The notes under the pieces: generated by a model
What the model was told of the DNA's origin: nothing
Database searches by the model: none
Seen by the model: the letters and a program-made list of their open reading frames with translations, nothing else
NCBI GenBank assembly: GCA_963849955.1
Contig: CAWKJU010000016.1
Coordinates: forward strand, 81,735 to 145,734
Length of the DNA: 64,000 nucleotides
Source: an uncultured Cytophagales bacterium
GTDB taxonomy: Bacteria; Bacteroidota; Bacteroidia; Cytophagales; JAAEPT01
Direction: 5' to 3'
Shown: piece by piece, positions 90 through 44,480 of the stretch
Layout of the letters: each line of letters begins with the position of its first letter
Position numbering within the stretch: the first letter of the stretch is position 1
Translations under genes and position numbers: made by a program

Positions 90-524
90 TTATTCACTAG
101 TAATTCCTTCATGCATAAATTCGGCTTTCACTACTTTACCTTTAATCAGTAACTCAACCACACAGTGAAAAGCCGTAGAACTTGTGAGTTGAGCAGTAAA
201 AGAATATTCTCCTTTTGCATTTAGTTTTGATTCAATTTCTTGGTCGTTATAATGTATCGTTACCGTGCCAGAAATTTCTTTGTTTTCCAGAGGCTTTAAG
301 TTTGACTTATAAACGTAAAAAGTAAGCTGATCTTTTTTTAGAAATAAGTCGGTGACCATTTCTACTTTATATTTATCAGCATTACTTATCTTTCCTCTGT
401 GCGGGGCTACTTTATTAGGGGTGGTGTTCGAGGTGTTTCCATGCCCACCACTACCATGATCATGTTGTGCCATGGCAAAACAACTAGCTAAAACTAAAGG
501 GATGATTAAAATTATTTTTTTCAT
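90..524 (-). CDS. Secreted His-rich small protein, probable periplasmic metal-binding accessory protein of the efflux island
   Basis: 144-aa ORF with a signal peptide (MKKIILIIPLVLASCFAMA) followed by a His/Gly-rich stretch (QHDHGSGGHGN). It is the last gene of the metal operon. Function is inferred from context only. Confidence 0.6.
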   Translation of the reverse strand: MKKIILIIPLVLASCFAMAQHDHGSGGHGNTSNTTPNKVAPHRGKISNADKYKVEMVTDLFLKKDQLTFYVYKSNLKPLENKEISGTVTIHYNDQEIESKLNAKGEYSFTAQLTSSTAFHCVVELLIKGKVVKAEFMHEGITSE

Positions 525-564
525 TTCTATTTAATATTAAGTGTGCTTTATTTAAGTAGTTGTG

Positions 565-699
565 TCACTTGTTGTATAGTAATTGTAGAACAGCTACCCC
601 AACTATTATTAAAACCAATAGGATCCAGCCTATTTTTTTAGACCAAACTTGTAGTTTGGTAGGTGGTTTTTCATTCCCCGTTTTGCAGCATTCTTTCAT
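565..699 (-). CDS. Unlisted 44-aa small membrane protein with an N-terminal Cys-Cys motif, translationally coupled to the adaptor gene
   Basis: Hand translation gives MKECCKTGNEKPPTKLQVWSKKIGWILLVLIIVGVAVLQLLYNK*. The ATG (699-697) overlaps the TGA stop (698-696) of the upstream CusB-like gene as ATGA. It has one clear C-terminal TM helix. It is below the size cut-off of the ORF track. Confidence 0.45.
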   Translation of the reverse strand: MKECCKTGNEKPPTKLQVWSKKIGWILLVLIIVGVAVLQLLYNK

Positions 700-2426: not shown

Positions 2427-2475
2427 AGTCGTTTCATTTTTATAAGTCCTTTTTTAATAAGTATAATCAGCAAAT

Positions 2476-2545
2476 CTCGCCTTCGTCAGTGTCCCCACTG
2501 ACGAACTAAGCGGTAAATGTTTGTGGGGACACAAACATTGGCGAG
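2476..2545. promoter_or_regulatory. 70-nt element of perfect stems (three-way junction) containing a 10-4-10 palindrome TTCGTCAGTG-N4-CACTGACGAA, 50 nt upstream of the adaptor gene start
   Basis: P1 is ctcgcc 2476-2481 paired with ggcgag 2540-2545. P2 is 2482-2491 paired with 2496-2505. P3 is aatgtttgtg 2516-2525 paired with cacaaacatt 2530-2539. All pairings were verified by hand. Function is unknown (operator or RNA element). Confidence 0.4.
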
Positions 2546-2615
2546 TTAACGCGAACTCAAAACTTATTTCAACAATCTCATTCCTCTGTATCATTATTCT
2601 TTAATTTTTATAAAC

Positions 2616-2717
2616 AATCAAAATCAGTCATTAGAACATCGATTCATCAACACATTAGCACATCAAACAATCAGCACATTAGCACATCAGCACATCAGCA
2701 CATCAATTAATCAACTA
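2616..2717 (-). repeat. Phased 8-nt tandem array (coding-strand NNNNTGAT/TAAT) starting on the copA-like stop codon
   Basis: Eleven indel-free octamers span 2630-2717: attagaac atcgattc atcaacac attagcac atcaaaca atcagcac attagcac atcagcac atcagcac atcaatta atcaacta. The last unit contains the TAG stop (2715-2717). Degenerate units extend to about 2616. Confidence 0.85.
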
Positions 2718-5216
2718 ACCAATACTCTGAACCCGCAACCTCAATGCATTACCAATCACCGAAACCGAACTGAAACTCATCGCCAGGGCTGCTATCATCG
2801 GAGATAACAAGACACCAAAGAACGGAAAGAGCAAACCCGCTGCAATTGGAATACCTAAGACGTTATATGCCAAAGCAAAAAACAGGTTTTGTTTGATGTT
2901 GCTCATCACTTTCATACTTAGGTTTCTCGCTTTCACGATACCGTGTAAGTCGCCTTTTACCAATGTGATGGAAGCACTTTCGATGGCTACATCGGTGCCC
3001 GTTCCCATAGCAATACCGACATCACTTTGAGCCAATGCAGGGGCATCGTTTATTCCATCACCCGCCATGGCTACTATCCGTCCGTTTTCTTGTAATTTTT
3101 TTACTTCGTTTAGTTTGTCTTCAGGTAACATGCCTGCTTTGAAATCTGCTAAGTTGAGTTCGTTGGCAACGGCTTGCGCGGTGTTGAAATTATCACCCGT
3201 CAACATGATTACCTCAATCCCACTTTCTTGCAATTCTTTGATTGCCTGAGCACTGGTTTGTTTTATTTTATCACCGATAACCACATAACCAATTACCTGA
3301 TTTTCTACCGATAAGTAAGAAACCGTTTTACCTTGTTTTTGAAATTTTTCAGCTGTTTGCGTAGCTTGTTCATCAATAGTAGCCTCGGAATGCTGCATCA
3401 TTTTATCATTACCCAAGGCTACTTTTTTTCCCTCAATTTTTCCTTCTACACCTTTTCCAGTTACTGCATTAAAATCTTCTAATTTGAGCAACTCCACTTC
3501 TTTTTCTTTACCATATTTCACAGTGGCTTGCGCCAAAGGATGTTCACTCTGTTGATTCAGCGAAGCAATCAACTGTAATACTTTTTCTTCTGTATATGCA
3601 TCCCCGAAAACGCCAATAGTGTCTACAGTTGGTTTTCCTTCAGTGATTGTTCCTGTTTTATCGATGATCAAAACATCCACTTTATTCATTTTTTCTAATG
3701 CTTCAGCACTCTTAATTAAGACTCCGTTTTGAGCTCCTTTACCTACTCCAACCATCACAGACATAGGCGTAGCCAAACCTAAAGCACAGGGGCATGCGAT
3801 AATTAAAACCGCAATCGCATTGACCAGTGCATACACATAAGCTGGCTCTGGACCATAAATAGCCCAAACCGCAAAGGTGATGGCTGAAATAATGACTACG
3901 ATAGGCACAAAATAACCAGAGACTTGATCGGCCAATTTTTGAATGGGTGCTTTACTTCTACTGGCGTTGTTTACCATCTCAATAATTTGAGAAAGCAAGG
4001 TATCAGAACCCACTCGCTCGGCTTTCATCAGAAAAGATTGGTTACCATTAATGGTTCCGCTGCTTACTTTGTCATCGGCAGTTTTGTTCACAGGTATCGG
4101 CTCGCCCGTAATCATGGATTCATCTATAGATGTGCTTCCCTCAGTAAGAATTCCATCCACTGGAATTTTCTCTCCTGGCTTTACCCGAAGAATATCACCG
4201 ACTTGAATAGCATCTATAGAAATCGTTTCTTCTTTTCCATCCGTAACTCGAACAGCTTTGTTCGGAGCTAGTTTTAGTAGTGATTTTACTGCGTCAGTTG
4301 TTTTACTGTGCGCTCGGGCTTCCAGCACTTGTCCCATTAAAACTAAGGTCAAAATCACAGAGGCTGCTTCAAAATAGACATGCACACTACCAGATTCTGT
4401 TTTAAATTGGTCAGGGAAAAAATCAGGAAACAACATGCCAAACAAACTAAACAACCACGCTAATCCCGCTCCGATGCCAATGAGTGTGAACATATTTAAA
4501 TTCCAAGTGACCACTGAGCGATAGGCTCTTTTGAAGAACATCCACGTAGCATAAAATACTACAGGCAAGGAAAGTGTGAATTGTACCCAATTCCAGTATT
4601 TCAGTTCCATCAGTTGGTACAATGGATTGTTAGGGACCATCTCCGACATAGCAATCAAAAAGATAGGCACCGTAAAAGCGGCTGCTATCCACAACTTTTT
4701 TGAGAGTTTTTTGTAGGTTTTTTCTTCTGCCGAAGCTTCTGGGTTTTTTGGGACTAAATCCATTCCGCATTTCGGGCATGCACCAGGTCCATCTTGCACT
4801 ACTTCTGGATGCATTGGACACGTATATTCTTCTGATGAGGTAGGTTTTGTACTTGCCTGTGCAACTAAGTCCATTCCACAAACAGGACAATCACCAGGTT
4901 TGTCATACGTTTTATCACCCTCACAATGCATCGGACAATAATAAACACCTTTACCTGAGGTAACAGGTGCTGATTTTTTCTTAGGCACGTCAACAATTTT
5001 TTCACTTGGAAGATGAATGGAATACCGCCCGCCATCATTTTTTAAAGCTTCTTGAAAAGTCTCAATAGGAATATGAGTTTCCATTTCGATGGTGGCTTCT
5101 GCCTTTTCCAAATCCACCACTGCATTAGAAACTCCTTCAATTCCTTGCAGCGTTTTTTCTACATGCCCCCGACACCCATTACAGGTCATTCCTTGTATTT
5201 TATAAGTATATATCAT
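2715..5216 (-). CDS. copA: Copper-translocating P1B-type ATPase (CopA-like)
   Basis: 833 aa. It has an N-terminal HMA domain (GMTCNGCRGHVEK) and two CPMH...CPxCGMDL metal-binding repeats. It also carries the TM CPC motif (ACPCALGLATP), the DKTGT phosphorylation site, the GDGINDAP hinge, and the YN (ALAYNVLGIP) and MSxSS (AMSFSSVSV) signatures of the Cu(I) subgroup. Confidence 0.95.
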   Translation of the reverse strand: MIYTYKIQGMTCNGCRGHVEKTLQGIEGVSNAVVDLEKAEATIEMETHIPIETFQEALKNDGGRYSIHLPSEKIVDVPKKKSAPVTSGKGVYYCPMHCEGDKTYDKPGDCPVCGMDLVAQASTKPTSSEEYTCPMHPEVVQDGPGACPKCGMDLVPKNPEASAEEKTYKKLSKKLWIAAAFTVPIFLIAMSEMVPNNPLYQLMELKYWNWVQFTLSLPVVFYATWMFFKRAYRSVVTWNLNMFTLIGIGAGLAWLFSLFGMLFPDFFPDQFKTESGSVHVYFEAASVILTLVLMGQVLEARAHSKTTDAVKSLLKLAPNKAVRVTDGKEETISIDAIQVGDILRVKPGEKIPVDGILTEGSTSIDESMITGEPIPVNKTADDKVSSGTINGNQSFLMKAERVGSDTLLSQIIEMVNNASRSKAPIQKLADQVSGYFVPIVVIISAITFAVWAIYGPEPAYVYALVNAIAVLIIACPCALGLATPMSVMVGVGKGAQNGVLIKSAEALEKMNKVDVLIIDKTGTITEGKPTVDTIGVFGDAYTEEKVLQLIASLNQQSEHPLAQATVKYGKEKEVELLKLEDFNAVTGKGVEGKIEGKKVALGNDKMMQHSEATIDEQATQTAEKFQKQGKTVSYLSVENQVIGYVVIGDKIKQTSAQAIKELQESGIEVIMLTGDNFNTAQAVANELNLADFKAGMLPEDKLNEVKKLQENGRIVAMAGDGINDAPALAQSDVGIAMGTGTDVAIESASITLVKGDLHGIVKARNLSMKVMSNIKQNLFFALAYNVLGIPIAAGLLFPFFGVLLSPMIAALAMSFSSVSVIGNALRLRVQSIG

Positions 5217-5306
5217 TTTGTTTCTCTTTTTTGGTTATTAATAAATTCTTAAATCCAACTCAACTTCGTTAATGTCCTGAAGATGATGTTTGTGAAGACC
5301 CCCGCC

Positions 5307-5330
5307 TTCGTCAGTATCCTCACTGACGAG
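5307..5330. promoter_or_regulatory. Second copy of the CGTCAGT...ACTGACG palindrome, 91 nt upstream of the copA-like start
   Basis: tcgtcagt (5308-5315), loop atcctc, then actgacga (5322-5329). Positions 5304-5329 are 24/26 identical to 2479-2504 (gccttcgtcagtNtccNcactgacga). Confidence 0.4.
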
Positions 5331-5341
5331 CACGTATAAAA

Positions 5342-5461
5342 ATCAACCCATCAACCCATCAGCACATCAAACAATCAGCTCATCATCAAATCAACCCATC
5401 ATCACATCAACTCATCAGCACATTAACATATCAAACAATCAGCACATCATCAAATCATTCC
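5342..5461 (-). repeat. Phased 8-nt tandem array (15 units, coding-strand NNNNTGAT) starting on the tolC-like stop codon
   Basis: The 120 bp parse with no indel into 15 octamers that all begin AT(C/T)A. The last unit, atcattcc (5454-5461), contains the TGA stop at 5455-5457. Confidence 0.9.
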
Positions 5462-6687
5462 CCTTTAGCAGTCAAGTAATCGATTTGAGCCAATGCGATA
5501 TAGAAATTTTTTACCGCTGTTACCCCTGCCGTTTCATAAGCAAGAAGTTGCTGTTGCATGCGCAGAATTTCCTCAAAATCTTTACCAGAATTGCTGTAGG
5601 ATACATAGAGTAACTCCACGACCTGCTGCGTTTTTTTTGATTGAGTTGCATACAATTCGCTCATCTGCCTAGATTTTTCTAACTCATACCACGCCATTTC
5701 ATATTGGCTTGTAAGTCTATTTTCTATGACTATTTTTTGAGACGTAAGCGCGGTTTCCATCAATGTTGCTTCTTTTCTTAGCGCTTTATATTTTCCTCTA
5801 TAAATAGGTAAACTCATAGAAACCATTGGCATAATCGCGTCTTGTCCGTTTTGTGGAATAGATACATCGGGTCTTTTAGCGATCACTACATAATCGATAC
5901 CTACTCCAAATTGTGGTCTTCCTTGTTTTTCTGCCAAAGATTCATTGATATGAGCTGCTTGAATTTGTAAATCCAAAGCTTGTAATGTAGGATTTGCTGC
6001 GAAAAGACTGTCTTGGGTAGTACTTATGGGTTTTTCGCTCAATTCTAAAGAATCCTCAATAACTACTGAAAGTGAATCATTGCGGCTGAGCAAGCGATTA
6101 AATGCCACTTCTAATGGCTTTTTCTTGTCTTTCAACAATTGAATATCGGTTTTCAATTCATCCATCATAATATCTACACGAAGCGCGTCAACCAAAGCAC
6201 TTTTACCATTTGAAAACGCGATGGTCGCTAACTCTTTATAAGTCGTTAAAATGGCTAAGTTCTTTTTTTGCAGTCGCAACTGTGCCTCCAGTTCATAGAG
6301 GGGATAATATGCTGATTTCACTTGAAAGTAAAGCTCGTTTTGATCGTCCAAAAAGAGTTGATACTTCGCATCTGCATTCAACGAAGCGACATTACCGCTA
6401 GCTTTCAGTGTCCCAAACCAAGGAAACATTTGAGTCAAAGAAATACGTGCCTGCTGCTGACCAACGCGTGTTTCAATCATTCGCCCAAAAGCACTTACAG
6501 ATAAGTTAGGGTCTGGTAATGCTCTCATTTGTGATATTTGCTGCAAGGCTACTTCAAACTCTGCATGAGATGCTTTTAAGTTGGGGTTGTTCTCCGCAGC
6601 TTCCTTTAGGTAATCGTCTAGGGTTTGAGAGACACATGGAGATATCGTTGAAATAAATAGAAATAAATAGAAATAGATAGCCTTCAT
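5455..6687 (-). CDS. TolC-family outer membrane efflux protein (OMF)
   Basis: 410 aa with a signal peptide. It has the two-repeat alpha/beta OMF-like pattern (LDDYLKEAAENNPNLKA ... PQFGVGIDY) and sits between the RND pump and adaptor genes. Confidence 0.85.
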   Translation of the reverse strand: MKAIYFYLFLFISTISPCVSQTLDDYLKEAAENNPNLKASHAEFEVALQQISQMRALPDPNLSVSAFGRMIETRVGQQQARISLTQMFPWFGTLKASGNVASLNADAKYQLFLDDQNELYFQVKSAYYPLYELEAQLRLQKKNLAILTTYKELATIAFSNGKSALVDALRVDIMMDELKTDIQLLKDKKKPLEVAFNRLLSRNDSLSVVIEDSLELSEKPISTTQDSLFAANPTLQALDLQIQAAHINESLAEKQGRPQFGVGIDYVVIAKRPDVSIPQNGQDAIMPMVSMSLPIYRGKYKALRKEATLMETALTSQKIVIENRLTSQYEMAWYELEKSRQMSELYATQSKKTQQVVELLYVSYSNSGKDFEEILRMQQQLLAYETAGVTAVKNFYIALAQIDYLTAKGE

Positions 6688-7067
6688 TTTTTTGCATTTT
6701 GTTTTGTGACCGCGATGAAATTATTGAGTTTAATTTCAAGAGGTTTGTGAATTTCTTGAAGTGAATCAAATATGGTTTGAGTAATAATTTTTCTTTCCAA
6801 CATTAGTTCTGCCCAATGTTGACAAGCTTCAGATAGTGAGCCTCTTGAGAAATGATAAAACCGTGCTTTTTCTAAGTAGTGATACCGAGCATATCCTTCA
6901 GCGATATTAGCACCAACCGAATCCGCAGACCGAATAAATTGATCACCAATTATTTTTTTCTGTTCATAATTAAGATTTGAATAAATATCCCACGCCAACG
7001 AAGAAAGCTTTCGAGCAAGCTGATAGACTTGCAAATCCTTTAAGGCTATATATGTCGTTGTTTCCAT
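6684..7067 (-). CDS. Four-helix-bundle protein (23S rRNA intervening-sequence protein family)
   Basis: 127 aa. The pattern DLQVYQLARKL...QFIRSADSVGANIAEGYAR...ARFYHFSRGSLSE matches the remembered signature of the TIGR02436-type family. Its TGA stop overlaps the tolC-like ATG as ATGA (6684-6687). Confidence 0.8.
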   Translation of the reverse strand: METTTYIALKDLQVYQLARKLSSLAWDIYSNLNYEQKKIIGDQFIRSADSVGANIAEGYARYHYLEKARFYHFSRGSLSEACQHWAELMLERKIITQTIFDSLQEIHKPLEIKLNNFIAVTKQNAKK

Positions 7068-7079
7068 TTTATTTAATAT

Positions 7080-10000
7080 TCAATTTATATCAACCTTATT
7101 TCTTTGAGCTTTTTTAAGTGAATATTCCTCTCTTAAAGCAAACAACACCGGCACAATAAAGTAAGAACTGATGTCGATAATCATTCCCCCAAAAGCAGGT
7201 ATCGCCATAGGAATCATGATATCCGATCCTCTTCCTGTTGAGGTGAAAATGGGTAGTAGTGCAATAATTGTGGTTGTGGTAGTCATCACGCAGGCTTTTA
7301 TTCTTCGGTGTCCACCTTCAATTGCTGCTTTTCTGATTTCTTCTACCGAAGTCGTTTTTCTGTCCTTAAATGTTTGCGTCAAGTATGTTCCCATCAATAC
7401 ACCATCATCGGTTGCTAAACCAAACAAGGCAATAAATCCTACCCAAACGGCCACACTGAGATTAATGGGCTGCATTTGAAATAAGTCCCTCATATTTGTG
7501 CCGAATAAATCGAAATTCATAAACCACGGCACTCCCCACAGCCAGAGCATAATAAAACCACCACTAAATGCTACAGATATACCTGTAAAAATCATGAGTG
7601 AGGTAGTTACTGAACGAAATTGGAAATAAAGAATTAAGAAGACGATTCCTAATACAAGAGGCACTACAATAGTAAGTCGTTTTTCAGCACGGATTTGATT
7701 TTCATAACTACCAGAGAACTTGTAGCTAATTCCAGCAGGGACTATCAGTTCTTTCTGATCTATTTTATTCTGAATAAAGCGCTGCGCTTCTTCGACTACA
7801 TCCACTTCTGCATAACCCGCTTTTTTATCCAACAAGACATAACCCACCAAAAAGGTGTTTTCACTTTTTATCATTTGAGGGCCAGCCACGTATTCAATAT
7901 CTACTAAATCCCCAAGGGGAACTTGAACACCTGTTGGCGTTGGGATATAGATTTTTGCAATACTACTTGGATCCTCCCTTAATTCTCTTGGATATCGAAC
8001 TCTAACAGGAAACCTCTCTCTACCTTCAACGGTAGAGGTGATTTGCATTCCACCGATAGCTATTTCTATTGTTTGCTGTACATCTTCAATGGTTAGTCCA
8101 TACCGAGAAATGGCATCTCTATCGATATTGAGTTGCAGATAGGGCTTCCCGACTATTCGATCAGCAAATACGGCTTCACTTTTTATCGAAGGCACTTCTT
8201 TTAAAATAGCTTCTAATTTTACTCCGAAATCTTCGATCGTTTGAAGGTTTGGCCCATACACTTTAATCCCCATTGGTGCTCTCATACCTGTTTGGAGCAT
8301 GATTAAGCGCGTTTCAATCGGTTGTAATTTGGGAGCAGAAGTAACCCCAGGTATTTTTGTTACCCGTACAATTTCATTCCAGATGTCATCAGGTGTTTTA
8401 ATTTCTTCACGCCAGTTTCTGAAATAATTACCTGAAGCATCCTCGATTAAACTAATAGAGCTAATTCCTTGTACCAGTGCCTCATTATTAGACACAGTAT
8501 CGCCAGTAGTTAAAATAAATCGATTTTCATTATCTGTTTTAAACCGTTCGCGATGCCCTTTTTTGTTTAAAGCATATTCTGGTTTGTAGTTGATAATGTT
8601 TTCATACATCGAAATGGGTGCTGGATCCAACGCGGTTTCTGACCTCCCCAATTTACCAACTGCCAGTTCTACTTCAGGAATATTAGCGAGTAGCATATCC
8701 AACTGCTGTACTACACGTTTACTTTGTTCAACTCCTGCATGAGGCATTGAGGTGGGCATCAATAAAAAGCTACCTTCATTCAAAGAAGGCATAAACTCTT
8801 TACCAACACCTGGAAAGGTATGCGATAAGCCACTCCAAACAGACGTAGTTCTAATGTTTAAATGTACAGCATCAAACCCAGTTGCCACAAAGCCAAATAG
8901 TGAATTAAAGCCTAACCAAATGGTAATTCCCAGTACAACTAAAAAGGTAGGAATGGAAAGAAAAGCCAATTTATGATCTAAACACCATGCTAAAATTTTT
9001 CTGTAATAAAGATCTAATAAGGTAAACGTGCCGAGCACTAACGTAACCATTAAAGCAACAAACAGAAAGTTGTAGGTTAATGATTTTGAAGCTCCAAGTG
9101 GCATCCAATAATTCGCCAATAAACTTGTCACTGAAATTACGGCTACAATTACGGATAGATTATTAGTCAACCAATTTTTCTTAGGGCTGTACTCTTGCAC
9201 GAACCAAGCAATTCCGAAAGCCATTAAAGTCAAGCCTGACCAAAGCGAAACCCAAATAGACGTAGCTAAGCCAGAAAGAATTAACAGGACATTAAAAAGT
9301 TGTCCTCTTCTATTTTTATTGATTTTAATGCCGAAAAACCAATGAGCGAAACTAGGAAGAATGAGCAAAGCAACAATTAAAGAAGCGATGAGCGCAAAAG
9401 TTTTTGTGTATGCCAAAGGTCCAAACAACTTTCCTTCGGCAGCTTCCATGGTGAATACAGGTAGAAAACTGACCACGGTTGTGGCAACGGCTGTTACAAT
9501 AGCTGAACTCACTTCAGCCGCAGCGTTATAAATAGTATCGACTAATTTTTGTTCGGGCGGAGCATCTTCAATATGTTGAATCACGTTTTCGGAAAGCACA
9601 ATTCCTAAATCGACCATCGTACCAATGGCAATCGCAATACCTGAAAGAGCTACAATGTTGGCATCAATATGAAAATAGCGCATCGCAATAAATACCATCA
9701 ACACTGCAATAGGCAATAAACTCGCAATAAGTATAGATGCTCTAAGATTCAGCACCATCACAATAATCACAAGTATGGTAATGAGTATTTCAAGCGAAAG
9801 TGCTTCTTCTAAAGTGCCTAAAGTTTCATTGATGAGTTGTGTTCTATCATAAAAAGGGACAACAGTCAACTGACTTTCAACACCATTTGCCAATATTTTC
9901 TTAGGCAATCCTGGGGCAATCTCTTTTATGCGTTCTTTAATATGATTGATGACCGCTAAAGGATTAGAACCATATCGGGCGATAACAACTCCCCCAACTA

Positions 10001-10898
10001 CTTCTGCTCCATCTTTATCTAAACCGCCTCGCCTCGGTGCGGGACCAAGTGACACTACACCAATATCTTTAATTCGAATGGGTACATTTTCTTCTATCCC
10101 AACTACAGCTTTTTCTATGTCCTCTATCGATGTGATATAACCCAAACCACGAACAAGGTATTCCACTTGATTAATTTCGATGGTTTCTGCACCTACATCT
10201 CTATTCGATGATTTTACTGCTTCCATCACTTTGTAAAGCGGGATATTGTATGCTCTTAGGGCGTCTGGATTTACATCTATTTGATATTCTTGCACATAAC
10301 CTCCAATAGAAGCTACTTCAGAAACATCGTCTACACCGTTTAATCCATATTTTACATAAAAATCTTGCACCTTTCTTATTTCATGCAAGTCCCAACCGCC
10401 TGTAGGGTTTCCTTCTTTATCCCGACCTTCTAAGGTATACCAATACACCTGTCCGAGTGCCGTAGCGTCTGGGCCTAAGGTGGGCTTTACGTCTTGGGGA
10501 AGTAACCCTGGCGCCAGTGAATTGAGTTTTTCCAACACCCGAGAGCGCGACCAGTAAAATTCAATATCATCTTTAAAAATGATATTGATTATTGACGCAC
10601 CAAACATAGAGGTACAGCGGATCGATTTTACACCGGGAATACCTAAAAGAGTCGTAGTAAGTGGATAGGTGATTTGATTTTCAACATCTTGAGGCGACCT
10701 CCCAGACCAGTCAGTAAATACAATTTGTTGATTTTCACCAATATCTGGAATAGCATCAACAGGCACGGGGTCGGAGGGTAAGAACCCAGTTTTCCAGCCG
10801 AATGGAGAAGTCACTAAACCCCAACCGATAATTAATATGAGGAATAAAAGCGTTACTAACTTGTTATCAAGAAAGTATCGAATGATACGATTTAACAT
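7080..10898 (-). CDS. CusA/CzcA-family heavy-metal efflux RND permease (unusually long, 1272 aa)
   Basis: It has the 12-TM RND architecture with two large periplasmic loops and typical HME-RND N-terminal sequence (MLNRIIRYFLDNKLVTLLF...). An extra hydrophobic block at about aa 525-640 and an extended second periplasmic loop account for the extra length. Confidence 0.95.
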   Translation of the reverse strand: MLNRIIRYFLDNKLVTLLFLILIIGWGLVTSPFGWKTGFLPSDPVPVDAIPDIGENQQIVFTDWSGRSPQDVENQITYPLTTTLLGIPGVKSIRCTSMFGASIINIIFKDDIEFYWSRSRVLEKLNSLAPGLLPQDVKPTLGPDATALGQVYWYTLEGRDKEGNPTGGWDLHEIRKVQDFYVKYGLNGVDDVSEVASIGGYVQEYQIDVNPDALRAYNIPLYKVMEAVKSSNRDVGAETIEINQVEYLVRGLGYITSIEDIEKAVVGIEENVPIRIKDIGVVSLGPAPRRGGLDKDGAEVVGGVVIARYGSNPLAVINHIKERIKEIAPGLPKKILANGVESQLTVVPFYDRTQLINETLGTLEEALSLEILITILVIIVMVLNLRASILIASLLPIAVLMVFIAMRYFHIDANIVALSGIAIAIGTMVDLGIVLSENVIQHIEDAPPEQKLVDTIYNAAAEVSSAIVTAVATTVVSFLPVFTMEAAEGKLFGPLAYTKTFALIASLIVALLILPSFAHWFFGIKINKNRRGQLFNVLLILSGLATSIWVSLWSGLTLMAFGIAWFVQEYSPKKNWLTNNLSVIVAVISVTSLLANYWMPLGASKSLTYNFLFVALMVTLVLGTFTLLDLYYRKILAWCLDHKLAFLSIPTFLVVLGITIWLGFNSLFGFVATGFDAVHLNIRTTSVWSGLSHTFPGVGKEFMPSLNEGSFLLMPTSMPHAGVEQSKRVVQQLDMLLANIPEVELAVGKLGRSETALDPAPISMYENIINYKPEYALNKKGHRERFKTDNENRFILTTGDTVSNNEALVQGISSISLIEDASGNYFRNWREEIKTPDDIWNEIVRVTKIPGVTSAPKLQPIETRLIMLQTGMRAPMGIKVYGPNLQTIEDFGVKLEAILKEVPSIKSEAVFADRIVGKPYLQLNIDRDAISRYGLTIEDVQQTIEIAIGGMQITSTVEGRERFPVRVRYPRELREDPSSIAKIYIPTPTGVQVPLGDLVDIEYVAGPQMIKSENTFLVGYVLLDKKAGYAEVDVVEEAQRFIQNKIDQKELIVPAGISYKFSGSYENQIRAEKRLTIVVPLVLGIVFLILYFQFRSVTTSLMIFTGISVAFSGGFIMLWLWGVPWFMNFDLFGTNMRDLFQMQPINLSVAVWVGFIALFGLATDDGVLMGTYLTQTFKDRKTTSVEEIRKAAIEGGHRRIKACVMTTTTTIIALLPIFTSTGRGSDIMIPMAIPAFGGMIIDISSYFIVPVLFALREEYSLKKAQRNKVDIN

Positions 10899-10902
10899 GG
10901 TT

Positions 10903-10974
10903 TGATGTGTTGATTATTTGATGTGCTAATTAAATAATGTGCTGATGTGTTGATTAAATAATGTGCTGATTTTT
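10903..10974. repeat. Phased 8-nt array in the opposite orientation (TGATNNNN on the + strand), immediately upstream of the RND pump start
   Basis: Nine indel-free octamers: tgatgtgt tgattatt tgatgtgc taattaaa taatgtgc tgatgtgt tgattaaa taatgtgc tgattttt. Confidence 0.85.
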
Positions 10975-11010
10975 GAAGACATAGGTATTCTCCAAACTAA
11001 AAGTAATGAT

Positions 11011-11058
11011 ATCGACACATCATCGAATCACCACATCAGCACATTAATAAATCAAATA
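11011..11058 (-). repeat. Phased 8-nt array (ATCANNNN on the + strand) starting on the stop codon of the HYC/CC/PP-motif gene
   Basis: Six octamers: atcgacac atcatcga atcaccac atcagcac attaataa atcaaata. The last contains the TGA stop at 11052-11054. Positions 11032-11046 are the exact reverse complement of 10935-10949. Confidence 0.85.
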
Positions 11059-11462
11059 AGGAAAGACTGGTGTAATACGGGAAGATCTCGCTGAACGAGT
11101 GGTGGATTGTAAGCTAAAAATGAAGGTTGTTTTTCAACTGCAACCTCAGGTAAAAGGAATGAATAAAAGAAAGTAGCGACAAAAACTGGATGAAGATTCA
11201 CTTCAACATTTACCAATTGAAAATCGTCATCCACTTGAAAAGCGTTGAAATGATTTTCACAGCAATTTTTCTTTTTGATAGCAGTTCCATGTGTTGCGCA
11301 AGTAGAAGAAGTTGCTATCTTCATTCCACAACTCAGTTTATGTTGCGTGAGTTGCACATCAGATTTAATTGCTTTACCATAACAAAAATGCGTATTTACC
11401 CCAAACCCCACAGATGTGGCTAGGAAATAAATGGCAAGCGTGATGGAAAAGAATTTTTTCAT
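11052..11462 (-). CDS. Secreted Cys-rich protein with ordered H-F/Y-C, C-C and P-P motifs (resembles the 'HYC_CC_PP' family name as I remember it); first gene of the metal island
   Basis: 136 aa with a signal peptide. The ordered motifs are THFCYG, KKNCCENHF and AYNPPLV. Family assignment is from memory and needs an HMM check. Confidence 0.6.
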   Translation of the reverse strand: MKKFFSITLAIYFLATSVGFGVNTHFCYGKAIKSDVQLTQHKLSCGMKIATSSTCATHGTAIKKKNCCENHFNAFQVDDDFQLVNVEVNLHPVFVATFFYSFLLPEVAVEKQPSFLAYNPPLVQRDLPVLHQSFLI

Positions 11463-11575
11463 GTGTCAAATATACAAATTATTATTTAATAACAATTAAA
11501 TCACAACTTTTTTTACCCACTCTAAATAATTTATTCAATCACAAAACTACTCTTCGATTCAATCGCTTGATTGCT

Positions 11576-11607
11576 ACTTTGACAAAGTTTTAAGACTTTG
11601 TCAAAGT
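11576..11607. repeat. REP-like palindrome, 5' copy (actttgacaaagt-tttaag-actttgtcaaagt)
   Basis: The 13-bp perfect arms are 11576-11588 and 11595-11607, extendable to 14 bp with t11575/a11608. Confidence 0.85.
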
Positions 11608-11623
11608 AATAAATTTTTCAACT

Positions 11624-12262
11624 ATGAATCTCAACAAACCTTTAGAAACAGGTTGTTTTTATCATATTTATAATCGTGGAATCAATGGGGAAGATCTTTT
11701 TAAAAGTGAAAAAAGCTATACGCATTTCTTGAAAAAATATGACCAATACCTTTCTCCGGTTGTGGATACTTTTGCCTACTGTTTACTTAAAAATCATTTT
11801 CATATTCTAATTAGAGTAAAAGAAAAGGATGCATTACAACATTTTTTCAAAGAACAATATCCCGAAAAAAAACAAGAAGCAGAAAATGGCTTACACAGTA
11901 TCGATTTTATTGTAAGTAAACAATTCGCCCGACTCTTTAGTAGCTTTACTCAAACGATAAATAAAATACATCAAAGAAAAAGTTCTCTTTTTGATACTCC
12001 TTTTAAACGGATACATGTAGCAAATGATGTTTACTTCACTCAGTTAATTTGGTATATACATTTCAATCCTCAAAAACATCACTTTGTTACTGATTTCAGA
12101 GAATATCCTCATTCCTCCTATCATAGTCACTTATCAACTAAACAGACAAAACTGTATAGGCAAGAAGTATTAAGTTGGTTTGGGGGTAAAAGTAATTATG
12201 AAACATTTCATAATGGTCAACAATCAGAATTTGAGATCAGAAACTTGATTGTTGAATTTTAA
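11624..12262 (+). CDS. REP-associated tyrosine transposase-like protein (IS200/IS605 Y1 HUH superfamily, RayT-like)
   Basis: 212 aa. It begins FYHIYNRGINGEDLF, has an HUH motif (HFHILIRV) and a C-terminal catalytic-Tyr helix (LIWYIHFNPQKHHF). No TnpB partner is present. Confidence 0.75.
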   Translation: MNLNKPLETGCFYHIYNRGINGEDLFKSEKSYTHFLKKYDQYLSPVVDTFAYCLLKNHFHILIRVKEKDALQHFFKEQYPEKKQEAENGLHSIDFIVSKQFARLFSSFTQTINKIHQRKSSLFDTPFKRIHVANDVYFTQLIWYIHFNPQKHHFVTDFREYPHSSYHSHLSTKQTKLYRQEVLSWFGGKSNYETFHNGQQSEFEIRNLIVEF

Positions 12263-12265
12263 GAT

Positions 12266-12297
12266 ACTTTGACAAAGTCTTAAGACTTTGTCAAAGT
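12266..12297. repeat. REP-like palindrome, 3' copy (perfect 32-bp palindrome actttgacaaagtcttaagactttgtcaaagt)
   Basis: The arms are 12266-12278 and 12285-12297. The central cttaag is itself palindromic, so the whole 32 bp is self-complementary. Confidence 0.85.
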
Positions 12298-12368
12298 GTT
12301 TATCATAAAAAACTTTTAATACTTCATCAATAATTTTAATTTCCTACTATTATTAAATTCCTCTAGCT

Positions 12369-15985: not shown

Positions 15986-16347
15986 AGTCTGAGTTGGATT
16001 TGATGATGATGCTTACAAAACCTACGACCAGACTTAGCGATTTGGATTTATTGAATTGAAAAAAACTTAAAAAAAATGAATTGATAGTTAAAACTAACTG
16101 GTTTTTAACTATTTATATTGTATCTCTTTATTTTTTTGCTATCATTATTTTTTGACTCGTTCAACTCGAGCCACCTACATTGTTCCTATTTATCTTGATA
16201 AAAAAAACAAAACCTGGACAGTTTGGAAAACTGTGATTAGTTACGCTTATTAATTTGTGATCTAACTATCGGTCTCATCAAAAAGCGTGAAGAGATTAGT
16301 GACTAGGAGGTGAGCTAAAAAAATAATGAATCAGTAAAAATAAGCTC

Positions 16348-17187
16348 TTAGGTATTTCCAATTACATATAGTTGTTCAAGGTTAGGTGTTGGACTACCAC
16401 CTTTTTTCTCTAATGTAATGGCAAATGCCTGGGCGCCTCTAACATCTGGAATTGCTTGTAGAGTATTTATTTCGGTATTTATAGTCACTACACCCATATC
16501 TACTGGTGAGCCATCTACAATTGCCCACAGTTGATAGTCTTGTTCGCTCGGAGGAGCAGGAAGGTTTTGAATAGACATCATTCCTTTTTGTGTGTTTGGA
16601 TTCCAATACACCGTAGATTGCGTTTCTGGATGGGCTTCTGTTCCCTTAAGTATTATTTTAGCCGTGTTTTCGTTGGACAAAAAGGCAATTTGTTCTTGAG
16701 TGGTTTCCATTTCTGCTCTGATACTGGCTAGTGTATTTTCAAGCTGTTGCTTTTCCTCGGCCGCAGTTTCCAATTGAGCTACATATTGGTTTTGCTGTTG
16801 ATTGCCACTATAAAGTAAAGAAGCGGTAATAATAAACCCAATTACCGCTGCGGCTGCCAACCATTTCCAAGAGCCAGCCCCTTGTATTTCAGATTCTAAT
16901 GCTACAATTTTTGCTTCTTTGGGAGAGGATGTTGTTTTATCTTGTTCTTCCTTTTCTTGTGGTAGGTTATCTATTGCTGCTAACAAATCCGTTTTGACAT
17001 GTACAGGAACTACTTCTTTAGACCTGAAAGCAAACGACTCCATAGCCAGCTCAATGGCATGTAGTTCTTCTTTTATTTCGGGGTAAATATGAGACATACA
17101 TTCTACTTCCTGCTTTTCCTGAGAAGAAGCGGTGCCTAGAATGTAACTCTCCAGTATCCCTGACGATATGTAAGCTTGAATATCCAA
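16348..17187 (-). CDS. Anti-sigma factor (RskA-like C-terminal domain)
   Basis: 279 aa. It has an N-terminal zinc-finger-like anti-sigma region, a central TM helix (WKWLAAAAVIGFIITASLLY) and the C-terminal pattern YQLWAIVDGSPVDMGV...AFAITLEKKGGSPTP. It lies 1 nt downstream of the sigma gene. Confidence 0.8.
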   Translation of the reverse strand: MDIQAYISSGILESYILGTASSQEKQEVECMSHIYPEIKEELHAIELAMESFAFRSKEVVPVHVKTDLLAAIDNLPQEKEEQDKTTSSPKEAKIVALESEIQGAGSWKWLAAAAVIGFIITASLLYSGNQQQNQYVAQLETAAEEKQQLENTLASIRAEMETTQEQIAFLSNENTAKIILKGTEAHPETQSTVYWNPNTQKGMMSIQNLPAPPSEQDYQLWAIVDGSPVDMGVVTINTEINTLQAIPDVRGAQAFAITLEKKGGSPTPNLEQLYVIGNT

Positions 17188-17188
17188 G

Positions 17189-17656
17189 TTATGTACCTAC
17201 TATTTTTCGCAATTCTATCAATGCACTCCTGGCTCTCGTTTTCACTGTCCCTAGGGGAATATTTAGTTCTTCAGATAATTCCTGTTGGGTATACCCTTTG
17301 AAATATAAATATTCAAGAACAAGTTGATAATCAGGATTCAATTTTGCAATGACTTCTGTCAGTCCTATTGAATTGGTTTTAATATCTAAGCTATCCGATT
17401 CAACATTACTTACGCTATTGTCAAATCTTTGGATTGGTGACTCGCTCTCACGTTTTGTTTTTCGATACTGATCTATTGCCGAATTTCTCGCAATATTAAG
17501 CATCCACGTAAAAATAGTTGATTTTTCTCGATCGTATTGCGCAATTTTTGACCAGATTTTAACAAAAGTGGCTTGTAATACGTCTGCGGCAACCTCTTCA
17601 GATTGTACAATCCTAAAAATAACACCATACAATGCCCCCGAATAGTTATCATACAA
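17189..17656 (-). CDS. ECF-type RNA polymerase sigma-70 factor (true start probably upstream of 17656; no canonical ATG)
   Basis: Region 2 (FRIVQSEEVAADVLQATFVKIW...) and region 4 (YFKGYTQQELSEELNIPLGTVKTRARSAL) are present. The track start is a TTG. The frame stays open to 17749 and encodes a typical sigma N-terminus (TEQLVLLVKQGDKKAFEEL). Confidence 0.85.
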   Translation of the reverse strand: MYDNYSGALYGVIFRIVQSEEVAADVLQATFVKIWSKIAQYDREKSTIFTWMLNIARNSAIDQYRKTKRESESPIQRFDNSVSNVESDSLDIKTNSIGLTEVIAKLNPDYQLVLEYLYFKGYTQQELSEELNIPLGTVKTRARSALIELRKIVGT

Positions 17657-17833
17657 CTCTTCAAAAGCTTTTTTATCTCCTTGTTTTACAAGTAAGACCA
17701 GTTGTTCGGTATGTTCGGTTTGGCCTATTGGTTCAGTGTTAATTAAGCCTCAAAGTAAAGAAATCTATTTAGACTTAATGAACACTGATCTATTTATTTT
17801 AAGTTTTTTCGGTAAAAAATTGTAAAGCTAAAA

Positions 17834-19786
17834 TCAATATATACTGATTTCTATCCTTCTATTCCTGGCTCTTTCAAGTGCTGAATGGCCTTTTGTGATC
17901 GGCTCTTTTTCGCCCATAGCTTGAGTAGTTATTCGGTGTTTTGCTACACCTTGCTTTTTTAGATATTCAGCTGCCATCTCAACTCTTAAGGCTGAAAGTT
18001 TTAAGTTGTACTCTTCAGATCCAATTTCATCAGAATGCCCTACAAGGGCTACTTTTAAGTCTTTGTTTTGATTCAATTTGACTGACACCGCCTGTAATAT
18101 TTCTTGCGACATCTTATTTAGTTCGGTTTTATTATAGTCAAACATCAGCATCGACACGCCATACCCCTCTTCTAATAAAGAACCTATTTCTTCACTGGCT
18201 AACATTTCTTCTGAGGTTTCTGCAGTTTCCGGGTTAGTTAATAGGATGACATATTTCACACTTTCCCCTTTTACTAGTGTTTTTTCAATTTCAACAACCT
18301 CTTCTTTAATTATTTTATCCCCTTGTGTTACAAAAACGCGATATGCATTATCAGATACTAACTGTTTCTCGAAAGTACCATCTGCAGCAACCTGAACCTG
18401 AGCGCTGAATGGATGCTGTACTCCACCTTCTGAGTTAAAGAACACTAACAATTCTTCCGAAGCATTAGTCGTCTTATTTGAAACTGTGCCTACGACATTC
18501 ACCATTTGCACATTATAAGCCATGTAGATATCTAGCTGACCTTTTCCTTCTTCACGATGAGAAGCAAAAGTCGCTATCGTCTTGTTTCTATTTTCCTGAT
18601 AATACAAATCGTGGTGTGCAGTATTGATTGGGTATCCTAAATTTTCTGGTGCAGACCAATAGCCCCCTGGTAAGAAGGTGGATTTAAAGATGTCAAAACC
18701 ACCCATGCTTTTGTCGTTATTAGAAGAGAAATACAGACTTTTTCCATCAGGAGAAAGGAATGGAGATGTTTCATCAAAGTGTGTATTTAACGGTTCACCG
18801 AGTGGTTGTGGTTCTTCCCAAAAACCCCAATTATTTCTAGAGCTATAATACAAGTCCGAGTCTTGGCGAAACAATCCTTTCGCCTTTTTTGAAAAGATAA
18901 TCATGTTCCCATCATCGCTTACTGTAGCATGACCATCCGTTCCAAAATTGTTGATCTCAATCAGTTGATCAGAAGTGAACCAGTTGCCTCGATGATCTTT
19001 TTTGAGCATAAAAATTTTGCCTTTACCCTCTCCACGATACGCCAACATTTGGTTATCACCACCAAATAACTGGATACAAGCTTCATGTTGTTCGTTATTT
19101 CGCTTTCTTATCGATTGAGGAACACTCCACAGTCCCATTGCATTTTTTTGAGTCACAAATACCGTTTCGTAATAATCACCATTCTTGTCTTGTGGTGCTT
19201 CTTCATGAAGCTTTGTTTTTGAGGTATAATATATAGTAGATCCGTTGTCTCCAATAATAGGACTATGGTCATCATATTCGCTATTAGTTCCATTATTAAA
19301 TGCAACTATTACCGTTTCATTTGGATTGGACATTAGCCTCTCCCCATTATATGCCTGCTTAATAAGTGTCAATAGTTCATGACGTGCTTTATCTGATCTG
19401 TTTAGCGACCTTAAATAATTTGCATATTCATTAACTGCTAAATCAAATTGATGATTTTGGTGATACGCTCGTCCTAACCAATAACTATAGGCTTCGTCTA
19501 CTCCACTAATAGGATCTATATCATAAGCTTTTTTAAGATGGATTAAGGCTGTTTCAAAAGAAGAAGTGTGCAAACAACTGATTCCTAAACTGTAGTGAAA
19601 CCAAGCATCATCAGGGTCCTCCTCAACAATTCTTTTTAACAACTCTTTGGCATTATGGTAACGTTCAGAAGCCAGTTCAGCAGTGGCTTCTTTCTTCATT
19701 TTTTCAATATCATTGTTCGCAAAAACTGTTATTGCCACAAAGACAAGTATGATAATGATTATCGGTTCAATTATATTCTTTCCCAT
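17834..19786 (-). CDS. TPR / PD40 (TolB-like beta-propeller) / OmpA-family C-terminal domain protein
   Basis: 650 aa with an N-terminal anchor and TPR-like helices. Repeated 'SPxxSxDGxxxxFxS' PD40 motifs are present. The C-terminal OmpA_C-like domain carries GHSDEIGSEEYNLKLSALRV...NRRIEI. Confidence 0.85.
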   Translation of the reverse strand: MGKNIIEPIIIIILVFVAITVFANNDIEKMKKEATAELASERYHNAKELLKRIVEEDPDDAWFHYSLGISCLHTSSFETALIHLKKAYDIDPISGVDEAYSYWLGRAYHQNHQFDLAVNEYANYLRSLNRSDKARHELLTLIKQAYNGERLMSNPNETVIVAFNNGTNSEYDDHSPIIGDNGSTIYYTSKTKLHEEAPQDKNGDYYETVFVTQKNAMGLWSVPQSIRKRNNEQHEACIQLFGGDNQMLAYRGEGKGKIFMLKKDHRGNWFTSDQLIEINNFGTDGHATVSDDGNMIIFSKKAKGLFRQDSDLYYSSRNNWGFWEEPQPLGEPLNTHFDETSPFLSPDGKSLYFSSNNDKSMGGFDIFKSTFLPGGYWSAPENLGYPINTAHHDLYYQENRNKTIATFASHREEGKGQLDIYMAYNVQMVNVVGTVSNKTTNASEELLVFFNSEGGVQHPFSAQVQVAADGTFEKQLVSDNAYRVFVTQGDKIIKEEVVEIEKTLVKGESVKYVILLTNPETAETSEEMLASEEIGSLLEEGYGVSMLMFDYNKTELNKMSQEILQAVSVKLNQNKDLKVALVGHSDEIGSEEYNLKLSALRVEMAAEYLKKQGVAKHRITTQAMGEKEPITKGHSALERARNRRIEISIY

Positions 19787-44410: not shown

Positions 44411-44480
44411 GTCTTGATTCTTGGTTCATGTATCTAGTTTCTTGGTTCTTGGTTCTTGACTCTATCATCTTGGTTCTATA
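44411..44480 (-). repeat. Phased 7-nt tandem array (TTCTTGG consensus on +, CCAAGAA on the coding strand) ending 3 nt from the polA stop codon
   Basis: Ten indel-free heptamers: gtcttga ttcttgg ttcatgt atctagt ttcttgg ttcttgg ttcttga ctctatc atcttgg ttctata. Confidence 0.8.

Follow-up and report, generated by a model that had tools for sequence, protein, structure and literature searches.

Why does the spacer between the first two genes of a heavy-metal efflux operon carry an array of 8-nt units in one orientation followed, before the next gene starts, by an array of the same kind in the other? The locus lies in a stretch of 64,000 nucleotides (the window, whose positions are used throughout) and belongs to an operon of a type common in Bacteroidota, occupying positions 90-11462 on the minus strand. 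The spacer under study, 153 nt long, separates the HYC_CC_PP gene from the gene for the metal pump. In order of transcription, the operon reads:

11052-11462, minus strand: HYC_CC_PP family gene, transcribed first; 136 aa with an N-terminal hydrophobic segment; NCBIfam NF047658 at 70.5 bits against a cut-off of 28
11052-11054, minus strand: TGA stop codon of the HYC_CC_PP gene, inside the first unit of the hairpin 5' arm described below
7080-10898, minus strand: CusA/CzcA-type heavy-metal RND pump gene, second; 1272 aa; TIGR00914 at 760 bits, PF00873
10896-10898, minus strand: ATG of the pump gene
7067-6684, minus strand: four-helix-bundle protein of the 23S_rRNA_IVP family, third
6687-5455, minus strand: outer-membrane factor, fourth
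5216-2715, minus strand: CopA-type P-type ATPase, fifth
2426-696, minus strand: CusB-like adaptor with HMBD and DUF3347 domains, sixth
524-90, minus strand: 144-aa protein of unassigned function with an N-terminal hydrophobic segment and several His, last

A literature search on HYC_CC_PP and DUF8199 returned nothing, and one on octamer or 8-bp tandem repeats returned nothing relevant. The spacer itself is built around two arrays:

11011-11058, minus strand: 5' arm of the hairpin; six phased units from the HYC stop codon onward, read as TGATNNNN on the mRNA
10903-10974, minus strand: 3' arm of the hairpin; nine phased units, read as ATCANNNN on the mRNA; 47% A, 22% C, 4% G and no AUG

On the plus strand, the nine in-phase units at 10903-10974 are TGATGTGT TGATTATT TGATGTGC TAATTAAA TAATGTGC TGATGTGT TGATTAAA TAATGTGC TGATTTTT, with TGAT in six and TAAT in three, and the six units at 11011-11058 are ATCGACAC ATCATCGA ATCACCAC ATCAGCAC ATTAATAA ATCAAATA, with ATCA in four, ATCG in one and ATTA in one. 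The exact tetramer is thus found in 10 of the 15 units, TAAT/ATTA in four and CGAT in one. An initial annotation of this DNA had placed the nine-unit array in the right phase and at the right positions, but its distance to the pump ATG is 4 bases (10899-10902) rather than the 5 given there. The same annotation had located the six-unit array with the HYC stop in its last plus-strand unit, and the sequence bears this out, since ATCA at 11051-11054 contains the reverse complement of the TGA at 11052-11054. The perfect 15-bp stem that it described is also exact, 10935-10949 being the reverse complement of 11032-11046 at all 15 nt. Wider arms (10929-10970 and 11011-11052) are 81% complementary across 42 nt and lie 40 nt apart, and on the mRNA the two arrays are separated by a 36-nt apical region. 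A proposed cruciform or inversion at this locus appears unlikely and found no evidence, given arms that are 81% matched around a 40-nt spacer and a spacer sequence that is identical in an independent assembly (L126, ERR12040027).

The periodicity was recovered independently by Tandem Repeats Finder (TRF), with periods of 8, 16 and 24 at 10901-10970 and of 8 at 11016-11044. These are head-to-tail short units, within the 5-11 nt span that defines such repeats, but they lack the near-identity expected of recent slippage, with TRF matches of 70-92% and only T(G/A)AT conserved. Taken together, 98 units of the window and three orthologous loci carried 1.3-2.0 bits per position in T(G/A)AT and 0.26-0.85 bits at positions 5-8, a contrast somewhat inflated by the fact that units were picked by phase. 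The window contains 33 occurrences of three phased ATCA tetramers (at most 1 mismatch), where 0.95 are expected (0 of 100 shuffles reached this count), and all but three of these matches fall in three spacers of the metal operon. No arrays were found in the other 52 kb of the window or in the non-operon flanks of the close orthologue loci.

The other two array-bearing spacers of the operon hold the repeat in a single orientation:

5338-5457, minus strand: sense array of 15 TGATNNNN units, starting at the TGA that terminates the outer-membrane factor gene
2616-2717, minus strand: sense array of about 11 units, starting 2 nt past the initial T of the TAG that ends the CopA-type ATPase gene

Neither has a complementary partner, and on their own these arrays fold only weakly (z = -3.0 and -0.6). 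They cannot form a hairpin of this kind, in line with the earlier expectation that single-orientation arrays would behave differently. At period 8, sense arrays put UGAU in all three reading frames, and UGAU is an efficient four-base stop signal, as known from stop-codon context effects in E. coli. Sense units are also rich in start codons, with 27 AUGs in 264 nt compared with none in the 72 nt of the antisense 3' array.

The mRNA strand of the spacer has a predicted fold far more stable than expected from its composition. For positions 10885-11070 we obtained -50.1 kcal/mol, compared with -28.3 +/- 3.2 kcal/mol for 200 dinucleotide shuffles (z = -6.83), none of which was as stable, and the long hairpin that the initial annotation had foreseen just upstream of the pump start is supported. 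It consists of one long stem with helices of 9, 3, 15, 5, 10 and 3 bp separated by small bulges, together a near-continuous duplex of about 45 bp, and an 8-bp apical hairpin. The paired segments of the 5' arm are 11059-11051, 11050-11048, 11046-11032, 11030-11026, 11024-11015 and 11013-11011, and it is the distal six units of the 3' arm with which they pair. The basal helix joins 11059-11051, stop codon included, to 10922-10914, which correspond to nucleotides -16 to -24 of the pump leader, and in the partition function the HYC stop codon is paired with a probability of about 0.99. Two further features complete the spacer:

10972-11010, minus strand: apical region between the arms, with an 8-bp hairpin (10996-10989 with 10979-10972) present in both the MFE and the centroid structures
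10899-10913, minus strand: A/C-rich leader UCAACACAUCAAACC, largely single-stranded and abutting the pump AUG, with A at -3, -12 and -13

Since both arms are periodic, the hairpin had been expected to be register-degenerate, but the calculation points the other way. The main register accounts for 32.5 expected pairs, and the next two (8.2 and 7.2) are the basal helix and the apical hairpin, that is, parts of the same structure. With one dominant register, and with a cost of 20.7 kcal/mol for forcing open 7 nt of the 15-bp core, the predicted hairpin is well defined. The spacer is also more stable as mRNA than as its complement (-47.7 and -40.8 kcal/mol, respectively). A terminator scan detected no intrinsic terminator in 10880-11070; the 3' arm is followed by UCAACACAUCAAACCAUG, without a U run, and a hairpin with no U-tract after it is not an intrinsic terminator. 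A pump promoter within the loop, another earlier suggestion, gained no support from a sigma-70-type promoter scan, which returned nothing on the minus strand in 10975-11010, nor from inspection of the loop by eye, where the Bacteroidota -7 box TAnnTTTG was seen only in forms with one mismatch and a -33 TTTG not at all. At gathering score, Rfam gave a single match in the window, a tRNA, and none in the spacer.

The predicted hairpin does not cover the initiation region. The probability of being unpaired at 10899-10913 is mostly 0.81-1.00, falling to 0.46-0.59 at 10905-10908 only, so that nucleotides -1 to -15 are more than 80% unpaired except at -7 to -10, and mean pairing from -15 to +3 is 0.25 compared with 0.54 when the spacer is shuffled. 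This openness follows from the geometry of the arms, as the 3' array exceeds the 5' array by three units and thereby leaves the last 15 nt before the AUG unpaired, A/C-rich and AUG-free. Such a leader resembles those favoured in Bacteroidia, which initiate without Shine-Dalgarno pairing and in which structure tunes initiation; initiation there is helped by A at -3, -6, -12 and -13 and uses unstructured, A-rich leaders, and AUGs are scarce around starts (PMC6847099).

To place the hairpin in an evolutionary context we turned to related operons. At 60-65% identity, only three further HYC proteins were detected (loci L001, L003 and L005), all on syntenic contigs. A layout with sense units downstream of the stop and antisense units upstream of the ATG recurs in the spacers of L005 and L003 (9 and 4 units detected, respectively), and in L001 the same sense-then-antisense pattern is present in degenerate form. 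All three spacers fold better than their shuffles (z = -5.1 for L001 and -2.5 for both L003 and L005), and other spacers of these operons likewise contain sense arrays starting at stop codons. Unit numbers vary between orthologous loci of different species. The closing helix comprises 13.8 expected pairs in L001 and 10.7 in L003 and sequesters the pump start in both, whereas L005 resembles the window in having 9 units detected on its 3' side. Mean pairing of the initiation region is 0.81 in L001, 0.69 in L003 and 0.50 in L005, with 0.63 for the wider family described next. Sequestration of the start, which is a property of known coupling elements, is therefore seen in L001, L003 and most array-free relatives but not in the window. 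Because L001 and L003, with short or degenerate arrays, sequester the start and the window and L005 are looser, arm-length asymmetry appears to decide whether the start is masked.

A metagenome scan with the pump N-terminus provided a more distant set of 80 loci (72-84% identity over 200 aa), nearly all of which have an HYC-like ORF with a Q-x-F-L-I-type tail 70-160 nt upstream. Phased arrays were found in none of the 72 more distant HYC-to-pump spacers, which together with the window and its three close orthologues make up 76 distinct spacers. Structure, on the other hand, is widespread among them. The mean z is -3.55, with z < -2 in 61 of 76, and in 68 of 76 the first and the last paired nucleotide belong to one outer helix; in the MFE structures the median first paired nucleotide is at -1.5 relative to the end of the stop codon and the median last one lies 2.5 nt before the ATG. 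As the two ends of an isolated RNA segment are prone to pair with each other, we relied on flanked, shuffled and permuted controls. With 30-nt flanks kept and spacers shuffled, expected pairs between the stop and start regions number 8.57 in the real sequences and 1.24 in the shuffled ones, and a count of at least 5 is reached at 61 of 76 loci as opposed to 0 of 76 for the shuffled means. Cognate end duplexes average -8.44 kcal/mol compared with -4.49 kcal/mol for non-cognate ones, a difference matched by 0 of 5000 permutations. These statistics describe 76 related, and hence not independent, sequences.

Compensatory changes in this pairing are seen within a ten-sequence subgroup. RNAalifold predicts for it a 14-bp closing helix that includes the AUG, along with three inner hairpins; 90.7% of cells are paired, compared with 79.8% for shuffled sequences and at most 42% with slid partners, and 15 pairs are changed on both sides where 5.5 are expected (0 of 500 shuffles). 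In 55 of 76 spacers the complement folds less stably than the mRNA strand (p = 1.3e-5), and of 2562 pairs in total 240 are G-U, which points to RNA rather than DNA as the structured molecule. When a covariance model of the subgroup (R1) was searched, all 21 matches at E <= 1 were HYC-to-pump spacers, and Rfam at E <= 1 on 18 related loci gave no spacer match. Overall, a predicted stop-to-start helix is conserved in most HYC_CC_PP-to-CusA operons, pairing nucleotides at the upstream stop codon or immediately past it with those that precede, and frequently include, the pump start codon; it closes a structured spacer of 70-160 nt that is not in Rfam and of which we found no description in the literature. 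This comparison strengthens the case for the hairpin in the window. A metal riboswitch was considered for these spacers and dropped, in view of low sequence conservation across groups in which the helices alone are kept.

The window has in common with this family the position of the structure and a basal helix that contains the stop codon, and departs from it in forming one long repeat-built duplex, in leaving the initiation region free and in giving no R1 match. Membership of the window in the R1 four-way-junction group was accordingly rejected, since neither it nor L001, L003 or L005 produced a covariance-model match at E <= 1. The link between the window structure and R1-type helices is one of equivalent position and end-to-end pairing.

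We also asked where else such arrays occur. A search for six phased TGAT units across 185,579 species genomes yielded at least 120 loci. Among the matches listed, many are in Bacteroidota and others in Planctomycetota, Longimicrobium, cyanobacteria and assorted taxa, often as perfect microsatellite-like units, and of 79 cases that could be evaluated, 23 have an array that provides the stop codon of a real gene (e.g. FolD, MalQ, RmuC, MetK). The arrays are not a mark of metal efflux, as weak matches to operon proteins were found at only 2 of the 120 loci listed and the flanking genes are FolD, MalQ, RmuC, MetK and the like. An apparent bias towards TGAT orientation after stops (40 and 8, among the matches listed) was likewise set aside because TGAT arrays close every frame, the unconfounded counts being 13 and 8. 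The order of stop, TGAT array, ATCA array and start recurs in two other genomes among the matches listed, between smpB and an mqnA-like gene of a Phycisphaeraceae MAG (-91.9 kcal/mol, z = -6.2) and between a phosphoglycerate-mutase-like gene and thrC of a Prolixibacteraceae MAG (z = -3.8), with partial versions in L044 and L074. The palindrome CGTCAGTGnnnnCACTGACG, considered as a shared operator, was absent from 206 of 206 loci, orthologues included, and was rejected.

These observations lend themselves to an explanation, to which we give about an even chance, in which the inverted arrays are the two strands of an mRNA hairpin that represents a repeat-built, lineage-specific version of a conserved intercistronic coupling helix. 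This assumes that the HYC and pump genes are co-transcribed. By analogy with known systems, the hairpin probably sets the dependence of pump translation on the HYC gene. RNA-unfolding coupling is established for rpmI-rplT (+52 nt spacing) and for the MS2 coat and lysis genes (-50 nt) (PMC12548453), and these models, taken with Shine-Dalgarno-independent initiation (PMC6847099), make translational linkage of the pump to HYC the most likely role of the helix. The helix would bring a ribosome terminating on HYC next to the pump start across a long spacer, and/or mask the start region until a ribosome at the HYC stop melts the 5' strand, and pump translation would in either case be tied to that of HYC. 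Coupling by unmasking fits the predicted folds of 61 of 76 spacers; its simple form does not apply to the window, where the modelled start is not sequestered. In the window and L005 the extra ATCA units may relax masking, making the pump start more open than in most relatives, and the open, AUG-free, A/C-rich leader that they create in the window would make coupling looser there. The number of 8-nt units per arm could thereby set coupling strength, and the antisense orientation near the start may serve to avoid the many AUGs of sense units.

One alternative is that slippage, in a lineage prone to 7-8-nt repeats, produced the arrays as neutral by-products and that the hairpin is accidental and without a function of its own. 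This is possible, though we consider it unlikely. Absence of the arrays from the 72 more distant spacers and variable unit numbers among close orthologues are what it would lead one to expect, the array-bearing loci examined hold 69 period-7 and 164 period-8 repeats (the latter including the seed arrays), and long simple-sequence repeats of such size are a described class (PMC4679880). A decaying slippage product would not be expected, however, to keep T(G/A)AT near-invariant next to variable positions 5-8, even allowing for the selection of units by phase; nor does neutrality readily account for a layout and a significant fold that persist in four genomes whose HYC proteins are 60-65% identical, at a position that matches the conserved, covarying structure of array-free relatives. 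The arrays could also be mutational by-products that preserve an older helix by chance. A role as a phase-variable contingency repeat was considered too and failed, since the arrays are imperfect and intercistronic with no promoter evident. Rather less probable is a role of the duplex of about 45 bp in mRNA processing or stability, through an RNase III cut or a block to 3' exonucleases that would uncouple the stabilities of the HYC and pump mRNAs. RNase III needs a duplex of roughly 20 bp, which the series of helices interrupted only by small bulges exceeds, but the closing helices of the relatives (about 10-17 bp on multi-branch loops) are poor substrates, which means that a processing role would have to be lineage-specific, and such a role leaves unexplained why the helix ends exactly at the stop and start codons.

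At the DNA level, the arrays might be operators for an oligomerising regulator of the ribbon-helix-helix type, a class that coats contiguous short repeats, whether direct or inverted. The period-8 layout, in which a conserved tetramer alternates with 4 variable bp, resembles the operators of ParG, which consist of ACTC boxes with 4-bp spacers; the Omega repressor binds WATCACW heptads similar in sequence to the units of the window; and within the 64 kb the arrays are confined to the metal operon. We nevertheless regard this reading as improbable, as a domain search of nine neighbouring proteins detected neither a ribbon-helix-helix gene nor any other regulator within the operon or next to it, the arrays start exactly at stop codons and end at a start codon and not at promoters, G-U pairs favour the structure on the mRNA strand, and similar arrays elsewhere follow unrelated housekeeping genes among the matches listed. 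Least probable of all, in our judgement, is that the C-rich, G-poor 3' array is a Rho-loading site, switched off when paired, that makes the spacer a Rho-dependent attenuator between HYC and the pump. While the mRNA 3' arm, at 22% C and 4% G over 72 nt, does present UC dinucleotides at 8-nt intervals, the dominant structure sequesters nearly all of the array and array-free relatives with the helix have no equivalent C-rich tract.

If the repeat-built coupling hairpin is the correct reading, the locus bears on how Bacteroidia keep the genes of an operon in stoichiometric step, which is poorly understood. A covarying stop-to-start helix leading from a small His/Cys-motif protein to a heavy-metal pump would offer a concrete and testable case of structure-based coupling in Bacteroidota. 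In the window the same architecture would have been rebuilt from simple-sequence repeats, which would connect 8-nt slippage, as a mutational process, with a regulatory structure and suggests that unit number could tune expression of a metal pump. Even if its function proves trivial, this is an unusually clear instance of a repeat array co-opted as an RNA stem. A broader proposal, which we put forward as speculative and doubtful, is that phased TGAT/ATCA arrays are a modular and evolvable builder of stop-to-start hairpins in Shine-Dalgarno-independent bacteria, in which sense units would nucleate at UGAU stops, antisense units would precede the next AUG, unit gain and loss would tune coupling stepwise, and a dedicated reader of the UGAU/AUCA phase might possibly exist. 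Were this true, the element in the window would be one instance, and the smpB/mqnA-like and phosphoglycerate-mutase-like/thrC pairs would be others.

Several known systems share parts of this architecture. REP/BIME palindromes and intrinsic terminators also place a stable stem-loop after a stop codon inside an operon, but the hairpin described here has no dispersed copies in the window, has periodic arms and no U-tract, and ends its stem at the next start. Closer in form are coupling elements such as those of E. coli rpmI-rplT, MS2 coat-lysis and f1 genes VII-IX (PMC12548453), in which the end of the upstream ORF pairs near the downstream start and the finishing ribosome must open the structure. 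The HYC-to-CusA spacers differ from these in being 70-160 nt long and closed from end to end, in a phylum that does without Shine-Dalgarno use (PMC6847099), and the window differs further in that its strands are phased 8-nt repeats, its start region is open and coupling is predicted from the fold. The R1 four-way-junction spacer shares with the window the gene pair, the position and the stop-to-start closing helix, but it has three inner hairpins and a paired AUG where the window has one long repeat-built stem and a free AUG region. For the repeats themselves, the closest described analogue is the class of intergenic heptamers such as TAACTGA (PMC4679880). That work covers long simple-sequence repeats, cyanobacterial heptamers and the TAACTGA repeats of Beggiatoaceae, Cyanobacteria and some Bacteroidetes, which are, like the arrays in the window, head-to-tail, intergenic and of a length that is not a multiple of 3; both kinds put stops in all three frames in one direction and are open in the other, and both often abut start or stop codons. 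Such intergenic repeats have been proposed to act post-transcriptionally (PMC4679880). The arrays of the window are set apart from them by a period of 8 rather than 7, by a T(G/A)AT core with four variable positions in place of near-identical units, by their restriction to one operon within 64 kb, and by an inverted pair that builds a hairpin.

Two spacers of the heavy-metal efflux operon carry phased octamer units in a single orientation, the sense orientation (TGAT core on the mRNA), and each array begins at a stop codon:

window 5338-5457, - strand: sense array starting at the stop codon of the outer-membrane-factor gene
window 2616-2717, - strand: sense array starting at the stop codon of the CopA gene

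Both are rich in G/U (G 30%, C 6%). TGA is present in each of their reading frames, and numerous overlapping UGAUG stop/start motifs amount to ATG-NNN-TGA mini-frames. Between each array and the next ATG lie 120-190 nt of non-array sequence.

Period-8 arrays with in-phase TGAT are widespread, with at least 120 loci (L006-L125) recovered in a scan of genome contigs. Among the matches listed, the units are mostly rich in G/T (TGATGGGG, TGATGGAG, TGATGTGG), and in 23 of the 79 evaluable cases a real gene terminates at one of the first three TGAs of the array. One of these loci, L103, has an array of 17 units, 15 of which are the window's own consensus, TGATGTGC. The window also holds a separate tandem array at 44412-44477 (TCTTGGT, period 7/28, 6.7 copies), which is unrelated to the octamer arrays.

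In two of the scanned genomes, unrelated gene pairs are joined by an identical order of elements, in which a stop codon is followed by a TGAT array, then an ATCA array and finally a start codon:

L047:3405-3560, - strand: smpB to an mqnA-like gene, Phycisphaeraceae MAG
L077:4695-4815, - strand: phosphoglycerate-mutase-like gene to thrC, Prolixibacteraceae MAG

The folds predicted for both of these spacers are much more stable than those of shuffled sequences.

Array-like units are also found within coding sequence, in both cases at a linker:

window 1140-1171, - strand: phased units inside the cusB-like gene, encoding the linker that joins the adaptor core to the DUF3347 domain (...SADVLIND...)
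L005:19391-19430: five ATCA-phase units in the N-terminal linker of CusB, on an orthologous contig

These units are possibly relics of spacer arrays that were taken into genes. On the same orthologous contig, gene calling splits both the pump gene and the CopA gene into two or three pieces (L005:10560-14338 and 16092-18549), either because the assembly contains frameshift errors or because the genes are pseudogenes.

A four-helix-bundle gene of the 23S_rRNA_IVP family occurs in differing neighbourhoods:

window 6684-7067: 23S_rRNA_IVP gene
L005:18761-19108: 23S_rRNA_IVP gene
L117:1735-2064: 23S_rRNA_IVP gene

It lies between the pump and outer-membrane-factor genes in the window and in the orthologous contig L001, between copA and cusB with arrays on its flanks in L005, and next to a (TGATGGAG)15 array in L117, where another copy is found. 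These placements suggest that the gene changes position, both inside a locus and from one locus to another.

Upstream of the operon lies a gene with flanking palindromes:

window 11624-12262: 212-aa gene that matches REP-associated tyrosine transposases weakly (44 bits against a cut-off of 80)
window 11575-11608 and 12265-12298: palindromes with a 15-bp stem, TACTTTGACAAAGT...ACTTTGTCAAAGTA

The same palindrome stands on both flanks of the gene, whose place is occupied by other genes in orthologous loci, and the region 11575-12298 has the appearance of a REP-transposase unit that was inserted here.

Another palindrome is shared by two spacers, those in front of the cusB-like gene and of copA, and a second hairpin lies at 2516-2539:

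window 2484-2503 and 5309-5328: perfect 8-bp palindrome CGTCAGTG-nnnn-CACTGACG with AAGGCG after it
window 2516-2539: second hairpin, AATGTTTGTG-TCCC-CACAAACATT

The tops of the two hairpin types are reverse complements (GTGTCCCCAC versus GTGGGGACAC). The 8-bp palindrome has no further copy in the window and is absent from all 206 fetched loci.

In other Bacteroidota, the HYC_CC_PP and CusA genes are separated by a structured spacer roughly 100 nt long (21 matches to R1, a covariance model built from ten such spacers), as in three more distant loci:

L160:6555-6670: model R1 match
L170:7891-8006: model R1 match
L180:719-834: model R1 match

Its fold is closed by a helix of 14 bp, in which the AUG is paired, and contains three hairpins; compensatory changes are present. 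Comparison of 18 related loci with Rfam returned no family match in the spacer, and we regard the R1 spacer as a candidate new cis-regulatory RNA motif.
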